Below are positions 34,902 to 36,488 of a DNA stretch of 64,000 nt, piece after piece; position 1 is the stretch's first letter, and each line of letters starts with the position of its first letter. The stretch is from Escherichia coli (lineage in GTDB: Bacteria; Pseudomonadota; Gammaproteobacteria; Enterobacterales; Enterobacteriaceae): NCBI RefSeq assembly GCF_044647545.1, contig NZ_CP172818.1. One strand, written 5' to 3'. The translations under genes were made by a program, and so were the position numbers. The notes beneath the pieces are model-generated. The model was not told the origin of the DNA. It worked only from the letters and a program-made list of their open reading frames with translations, and did no database searches.

Positions 34902-36245
34902 ATGTTACCTTCTCAATCCCCTGCAATTTTTACCGTTAGTCGCCTGAATCAAACGGTTCGTCTGCTGCTTGAGCATGAGATGGGACAGGTGTGGATCAGC
35001 GGCGAAATCTCTAATTTCACACAACCAGCTTCCGGTCACTGGTATTTTACGCTCAAAGACGACACCGCCCAGGTGCGCTGTGCGATGTTCCGCAACAGCA
35101 ACCGTCGGGTGACCTTTCGCCCGCAGCACGGACAACAAGTTTTAGTGCGCGCCAATATTACACTCTATGAACCGCGCGGCGATTATCAGATTATCGTCGA
35201 GAGTATGCAGCCTGCCGGTGAAGGGTTGCTGCAACAAAAATACGAACAGCTTAAAGCGAAATTGCAGGCTGAAGGTTTGTTCGATCAGCAGTTAAAGAAA
35301 CCGCTTCCCTCCCCCGCGCACTGCGTCGGTGTGATCACCTCAAAAACCGGTGCTGCGCTACATGATATTTTGCATGTGTTAAAACGTCGCGATCCGTCTT
35401 TGCCGGTGATCATCTACCCCACCGCCGTTCAGGGTGATGACGCGCCAGGGCAAATTGTTCGCGCCATTGAACTGGCGAATCAGCGTAACGAATGTGATGT
35501 GCTGATCGTCGGGCGCGGCGGCGGTTCGCTGGAAGATTTGTGGAGTTTTAACGACGAACGTGTAGCGCGGGCGATCTTTGCCAGTCGCATTCCGGTGGTC
35601 AGCGCCGTCGGGCATGAGACGGATGTGACGATTGCCGACTTTGTTGCTGATCTGCGTGCGCCAACGCCGTCTGCCGCCGCTGAAGTAGTGAGCCGCAATC
35701 AGCAAGAATTACTGCGCCAGGTGCAATCGGCCCGTCAACGGCTGGAGATGGCGATGGATTATTATCTCGCCAACCGCACGCGTCGTTTTACGCAGATCCA
35801 TCATCGCTTGCAGCAGCAGCATCCACAGCTCCGGCTGGCACGCCAACAAACCATGCTTGAACGCCTGCAAAAACGGATGAGCTTTGCGCTGGAAAATCAG
35901 CTTAAGCGTGCCGGGCAACAGCAGCAGCGATTAACACAGCGGCTGAATCAGCAAAATCCACAGCCGAAGATTCATCGCGCGCAAACGCGCATTCAGCAAC
36001 TGGAATATCGTTTAGCAGAAACCCTGCGCGCACAGCTTAGCGCCACGCGTGAACGTTTCGGTAATGCAGTAACGCATCTCGAAGCGGTGAGTCCACTGTC
36101 CACACTCGCTCGCGGTTATAGCGTTACCAGCGCCGCTGATGGCGCGGTGTTAAAACAGGTTAAGCAGGTGAAAGTGGGTGAGACACTGACCACTCGCCTG
36201 GAAGACGGCTGGATAGAAAGTGAAAGAAAAACATCCAGCCAGTAA
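34902..36245 (+). CDS. xseA: Exodeoxyribonuclease VII large subunit; C-terminus appears frameshifted relative to the canonical 456-aa protein
   Basis: 447-aa ORF ending ...[11 protein letters not shown]; the +1 frame continues as [10 protein letters not shown] to 36271, and one extra nt would give exactly 456 aa. Confidence 0.85.
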
Positions 36246-36267
36246 AAAAATCGCGTAAAAAGGTGCA

Positions 36268-36488
36268 TTAAGCCAGCACGAATTCAACGCGTTTTTTCGA
36301 TATTAAACCATGCCCATGCTGACAGAAGTAATCCACTGCACCACAAGCTTTTAACACCTGCAACGCCTGATGACACTCAGGACAAAGTGCCTTGATTTCG
36401 GTAAATTTTCTCCCGCAAGATCGACAACGAGCATCTCGCCGTTATCCTGATCAAGCATCATGCTAGATTGTGGACAATGCAGTTCCAT
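36268..36488 (-). pseudogene. yfgJ: yfgJ-like small zinc-ribbon protein gene with interrupted reading frame
   Basis: Minus strand: GGAG RBS then ATG (36488) MELHCPQ...; C-terminal 58 codons (...ARCRSCG...LCPECHQ...YFCQHGHGLISKKRVEFVLA*) lie in another frame; span 221 nt is not a multiple of 3. Confidence 0.45.

Follow-up and report, generated by a model that had tools for sequence, protein, structure and literature searches.

The frameshift at the 3' end of xseA is a real feature of the deposited sequence, but as a protein variant it is almost certainly an artefact, because it sits within a 355-nt scrambled patch that blends two E. coli haplotypes. The sequence analysed here, referred to as the window, is a 64,000-nucleotide stretch of E. 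coli DNA (NZ_CP172818.1), and we call K-12-type sequence haplotype A (type A) and MS6198-type sequence haplotype B (type B). The explanation that we favour, with a probability of roughly 0.78, is a two-haplotype chimera produced during assembly or polishing. Taking together this chimera, a real patch carrying consensus errors and a miscounted homopolymer, it is very probable that the frameshift has no biological basis. We see no good evidence of a new XseA variant, and the biological weight of the frameshift is low; most likely, the strain carries an ordinary ST38-type xseA together with the sinH island.

Translation confirmed the gene structure given in a preliminary description of this DNA: the xseA open reading frame (ORF) spans 34902–36245 on the plus strand and encodes 447 aa ending in ESERKTSSQ. 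It also confirmed that the neighbouring frame contains a TGA at 36221–36223, after which 36224–36271 (plus strand) encodes a basic tail of 15 residues that ends at a stop codon at 36269–36271. Adding a single A to the A5 run at 36227–36231 yields a 456-aa product by computation, as had been proposed. When we aligned the gene to reference xseA sequences, we found the same basic tail in frame in K-12, whose XseA is 456 aa long (WP_000937912.1); the out-of-frame remnant in the window thus encodes the K-12 (type A) tail sequence. The length of 456 aa, which had been given as canonical, holds for K-12 XseA, but it is not the appropriate reference here, as the closest genomes encode a protein of 455 aa with a different tail. 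Residues 1–433 of the window protein are those of the XseA of E. coli MS6198, which has 455 aa (WP_000937904.1) and a tail unlike that of K-12.

Outside the patch, the window follows MS6198, an ST38-like urinary isolate. Positions 1–36201 are 100.000% identical to MS6198 (NZ_CP015834.1), with 0 mismatches and 0 gaps, and positions 36557–54063 also align with 0 mismatches and 0 gaps, so the assembly is accurate outside discrete patches. A globally error-prone assembly with homopolymer noise was rejected on the same evidence, as stretches of 36.2 kb and 17.5 kb show no difference from MS6198. The window strain belongs to the MS6198 type of ST38-like E. coli, and the first part of its xseA (34902–36201, plus strand) is type B and lies within the uninterrupted run of 36,201 nt that is identical to MS6198. 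By comparison, K-12 and MS6198 diverge by about 2.3% across the flanks. Just ahead of the tail, the final ~110 nt of xseA (36090–36201) differ between types A and B by ~15% (about 30 sites between the window and K-12), compared with ~2% in the rest of the region, which suggests that the flank of the island described below has an evolutionary history of its own. The type B xseA tail is also found in E. fergusonii.

In MS6198, xseA is followed by an 11.6-kb island containing an 8-kb adhesin gene, sinI and sinH, then by a divergent yfgJ and by der. This adhesin–sinI–sinH island corresponds in E. coli to the CS54 island of Salmonella (xseA–shdA–ratB–ratA–sinI–sinH, STM2512–2517; PMC3591323). It lies between xseA and yfgJ in the closest complete genomes (the best 15 matches), whereas the window has none (island span compared at window 36201/36557 against L002 12203–23953), and its island-less arrangement occurs in 0 complete E. 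coli genomes. In place of ~12 kb of MS6198 sequence, comprising the type B xseA tail, the island, the type B yfgJ and a spacer, the window contains only the 355-nt patch (36202–36556), which haplotype alignment resolves into a type A backbone partly overwritten with type B bases and interrupted by small indels. The window thus shares positions 1–36201 and 36557–54063 and XseA residues 1–433 exactly with MS6198, but lacks its xseA tail, its island and its yfgJ. With K-12, which has an island-free xseA–yfgJ–der locus, the window shares the convergence of xseA and yfgJ on a common TTAA, but it differs in that xseA codons 1–433 are not K-12-type, in a GTA-to-AG lesion in the xseA tail and in a scrambled yfgJ.

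The edges of the patch are abrupt. At the left junction, CTGG (36198–36201, plus strand), the last B-diagnostic base is at 36197 and the first K-12-diagnostic base is at 36202: the sequence is type B up to ACCACTCGCCTGG and K-12-type from AAGACGG onwards, and only CTGG is common to both. At the right junction (36553–36560), which falls at the der stop codon, K-12-type GATAATTA abuts MS6198-type CTTAC, and only ATTA is common to the two haplotypes. Both junctions are located exactly at the limit to which types A and B can be aligned, and no K-12-type SNPs were found in either flank of the patch.

Within these edges, positions 36202–36290 match K-12 apart from the lesion, and the remainder is a site-by-site mixture. 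Three-way alignment of yfgJ and the spacer gave 180 invariant columns, 69 in which the window carries the A base, 46 in which it carries the B base, 11 that are ambiguous and 5 that are private to the window. In the C-terminal half of yfgJ, which aligns without gaps, there are 0 private substitutions and ~9 switches between A and B in 130 nt. In the window, yfgJ (36268–36488, minus strand) has 221 nt rather than 216, its frame is broken and its zinc-ribbon motif CPQC has become CPQS. This pattern of a site-wise mix that is limited to a structural difference, and that adds no substitutions of its own, is the one that distinguishes a chimera of two haplotypes. By contrast, import by homologous recombination calls for extended identity at the crossovers and donor SNPs in the flanks, and the window offers 4 nt per junction; homologous recombination could not produce the ~9 switches in 130 nt, or the 4-nt crossovers with clean flanks.

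We also considered whether the patch could come from another Escherichia species or from a third, 'type C' haplotype. Among 5,426 complete E. coli genomes, no allele matched the patch at more than 86%, and none matched its best-aligned 139 nt at more than 90.6%; likewise, no intact YfgJ nearer than 79–84% was present among 5.8 billion clustered proteins. Such a donor was rejected on these values (at most 86% for an E. coli allele and at most 84% for an intact YfgJ), and a third lineage also because, if as distant from A and B as these are from each other, it would be expected to carry substitutions of its own, of which there are 0 where the alignment is unambiguous.

The frameshift itself is more than a change in the length of a run. 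The lesion (36225–36231, plus strand) was placed by alignment to K-12-type genomes, in which GTA is followed by AAAAA (GTAAAAAAC); the window has AG followed by A5, a net loss of 1 nt, and its string at the lesion includes GAAAGAAAAAC. In codons, after the shared GAA AGT GAA, K-12-type genomes continue GTA AAA AAC ATC, with an A6 run, and the window continues AGA AAA ACA TCC, with an A5 run. The minimal description is therefore GTA to AG or, equivalently, GT to AG together with A6 to A5, which amounts to two substitutions plus a deletion. The lesion lies directly 3' of AGTGAAGT, the last 8-mer that the type A and type B tails have in common, and it is private to the window, being neither type A nor type B.

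No independent occurrence of this allele was seen in the collections that we searched. Among ~15 billion proteins, the exact 447-aa protein is found on only 1 NCBI contig, which is 4,499,902 nt long. The frameshift allele occurs in 0 of 3,667 complete genomes that have a type A tail, the best identity being 93.8%, a three-base difference, and a 24-mer spanning the lesion had 0 matches in GTDB species-representative genomes and 0 matches in JGI metagenome contigs. A natural frameshift specific to a lineage would be expected in independent isolates or assemblies, and this one was confined to the record under study. The preliminary description had left the choice between a true C-terminal variant and a sequencing or assembly error in a homopolymer. 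We take assembly error to be the correct choice; a pure homopolymer miscount is contradicted by the compound change from GTA to AG, and a true C-terminal variant is not supported, as the allele was found nowhere else.

The 355-nt patch is not the only anomaly. Beyond it, the window differs from MS6198 in just three patches, at 54055, 57004 and 62835. The first of these (54055–54170) consists of 194 nt of MS6198 sequence minus ~80 nt in ~35 small gaps, with one copy of a timP/sseB' repeat missing and almost no substitutions; it aligned to MS6198 with a score of 89, compared with at most 46 for shuffled sequence, and these ~115 nt had no match in complete E. coli genomes. The next (57004–57025) affects a terminator-like hairpin between pepB and iscX, which has lost ~10 nt in several small deletions, changing its predicted dG from -15.3 to -6.5 kcal/mol. 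The last (62835–62837) is a 14-nt deletion with a 1-nt insertion relative to MS6198 in a REP-like element between iscR and trmJ, a site at which K-12 carries extra REP copies. Together with the xseA–yfgJ patch, these coincide with the four largest structural differences between K-12 and MS6198 in the span. At the two smaller structural differences (at most 48 nt) and at all indels of 1–4 nt, the window is clean and identical to MS6198. The three further patches are consensus failures, because a clone that shows no SNP in 54 kb could not have built up such changes. The idea that the whole window was laid out on a plain K-12 reference was unsupported, as the window equals MS6198 at indels of up to 48 nt and only the large differences are garbled. 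Genome decay of the Shigella type was also rejected, as the only pseudogenes in the window are the two within the 355-nt patch.

A second public record shares the unusual arrangement. An intact chimeric XseA, with the type B body and the K-12 tail (456 aa), is encoded by exactly one record, UMQ20878.1 on CP092703.1 (GCA_022488285.1; 4,677,367 nt), in which we compared the region 2632896–2654266 (L009). CP092703.1 has the same MS6198-type flanks and the same two junctions as the window and also lacks the island. It differs from the window in that its patch is purely K-12-type (358/360), with both xseA (456 aa) and yfgJ (71 aa) intact. Isolated N's occur in CP092703.1 at 18 per 21 kb, for the most part at CCWGG (Dcm) sites and at the edges of homopolymers, a pattern typical of ambiguous nanopore calls, and the record is probably a nanopore assembly that is chimeric or was filled from a reference. 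We found no literature on CP092703 or GCA_022488285. The two records are also short, at 4.50 Mb for the window record and 4.68 Mb for CP092703.1, compared with 4.93–5.22 Mb for the 15 closest complete chromosomes, a weak but consistent sign that accessory DNA was dropped from both. CP092703.1 resembles a construct of this kind at an earlier stage or after less polishing. The most economical interpretation is that in both records K-12-type sequence was filled in between the limits of alignability, and that in the window this fill was later overwritten in part by polishing with type B reads.

Such a chimera could have arisen as follows. A K-12-type 'empty-site' sequence, consisting of the xseA tail, yfgJ and the spacer, would have been placed between the last positions of the strain that can be aligned to a K-12-like backbone. 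The fill may have come from reference-guided filling or scaffolding, or from a second haplotype in the data. Consensus building or polishing with the strain's own reads would then have overwritten part of this fill, leaving a site-by-site blend of A and B with small indels, among them the change from GTA to AG that shifts the xseA frame; further small indels of the same origin would have broken yfgJ. Chimeric or mis-polished patches are a general class of assembly artefact. The window resembles this class in that its errors occur only where two haplotypes differ structurally, in its site-wise blend without private substitutions, in its deletion-riddled consensus and in junctions at the limits of alignability.

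The mosaic anatomy of the patch, its junctions, the uniqueness of its allele, the other patches and the sister record are direct observations, and from them we infer the steps of the pipeline. Three points count against a chimera. Because the lesion is private to the window, blending of the two haplotypes gives no direct account of it. The REP elements and repeats in which the three other patches lie are also hot spots of natural variation. Finally, CP092703.1 is independently island-less and K-12-type at this locus, and if it is a true de novo assembly, a real recombinant lineage is possible.

This last point opens the way to an alternative in which the strain belongs to a real ST38-like lineage whose island was replaced by the K-12-type empty site, as in CP092703.1, and in which consensus errors account for the deviations of the window, the frameshift among them. 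In that case the frameshift would remain an artefact, and the chimeric xseA, with a type B body and a type A tail (456 aa), would be real. The occurrence of the same junctions in two separate GenBank records, one of them with a clean and intact patch, argues for such a lineage. We consider it unlikely, however. The crossovers would have needed 4-nt identity at the edges of heterology and left no donor SNPs in the flanks, which is unlike RecA-type recombination, and the type B bases in the window patch require a type B template in the data. Moreover, the intact chimeric protein comes from one NCBI record only and was not listed from Logan read-based assemblies, and CP092703.1 contains N's and is absent from the 5,426 RefSeq complete genomes that the searches found. 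It would take more to accept every base as deposited, with a natural recombinant between A and B that lost the island, after which the xseA tail and yfgJ decayed to leave a 447-aa XseA without its basic tail. The sequence was indeed deposited in this form, and a protein that keeps its catalytic residues and most of its C-terminal domain may be viable, particularly as a C-terminal His tag is tolerated (PMC3439923). Yet neither recombination nor descent can produce ~9 switches within 130 nt without a single private substitution, the frame-breaking indels all fall within 355 nt of a clone that has no SNP across 54 kb, the patch elsewhere in the window with its ~35 gaps cannot have a biological origin and the allele is unique across all collections searched; we therefore regard this account as very improbable. 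We give similarly little credence to the version in which the window and CP092703.1 together represent a real ST38-derived lineage, with the island swapped for the K-12-type empty site through 4-nt microhomology and with the XseA tail and yfgJ decayed in the window strain.

Two further explanations concern the lesion alone. If an otherwise correct K-12-type xseA had been sequenced with its A6 run read as A5, restoring one A would yield 456 aa, as it does. The deletion is, however, accompanied by the two adjacent substitutions of GT to AG (an A6 string with the same two substitutions would read GAAAGAAAAAAC), there are 0 homopolymer discrepancies relative to MS6198 in 54 kb outside the patches and the body of the gene is not K-12-type, which leaves a miscount only a slim chance. 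The frameshift could instead be bridged during expression, either by a -1 ribosomal slip on A_AGA_AAA (36224–36230) or by transcriptional slippage, so that some products regain the basic tail. A -1 shift after the AAA at 36228–36230 would indeed give a 456-aa protein with that tail, and E. coli uses the AGA codon rarely. Programmed -1 sites, by contrast, have the form X_XXY_YYZ, a stimulatory element and a conserved out-of-frame arrangement. The heptamer here does not have that form, a run of A5 is too short for RNA polymerase to slip on it efficiently and reading the sequence by eye revealed no obvious stimulatory element. All 3,667 of the 3,667 relatives with a type A tail encode it in frame, so the shift site is not conserved, and recoding is an extremely improbable explanation. 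The assembly or polishing chimera thus remains the reading that we prefer.

The functional features of the encoded protein can be stated with the provenance of the tail in mind. By identity to the annotated XseA of MS6198, the window ORF has the OB-fold, the ExoVII_L catalytic core and the helical region of the family, and the near-identical xseA of CP092703.1 has PF13742, PF01336 and PF02601 on record. Of the catalytic residues reported for the ExoVII large subunit, D155, R205, H238 and D241 (PMC3439923), 4/4 are present. What the window ORF lacks is a complete C-terminal domain (~390–456) with a Lys/Arg-rich end: it diverges at residue 442 and stops at 447, and its tail has a net charge of +2, compared with +6 in both natural tail types. 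If the allele were true, residues 442–456 (net charge +6) would be swapped for RKTSSQ (+2). XseA's C-terminal domain forms a domain-swapped beta-barrel and thereby supports dimerisation (PMC10835039), and the only change known to inactivate the enzyme here, deletion of residues 397–456, is much larger (PMC3439923). Both natural tails are strongly basic although their sequences differ, and this hints that the basic charge of the tail may matter.

In practice, these results serve to flag the quality of two public assemblies that contain chimeric patches at island junctions. The flagged patches leave out an accessory island, bring in foreign K-12-type sequence and introduce artificial frameshifts into genes, and such records would mislead pseudogene counts, calls of island presence or absence and pangenome analyses. 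The ORF listed for guaB includes an in-frame extension at its start, giving 511 aa compared with the annotated 488 aa, and an ORF of 471 aa that runs antisense through guaB (33322–34737, plus strand) is almost certainly spurious.
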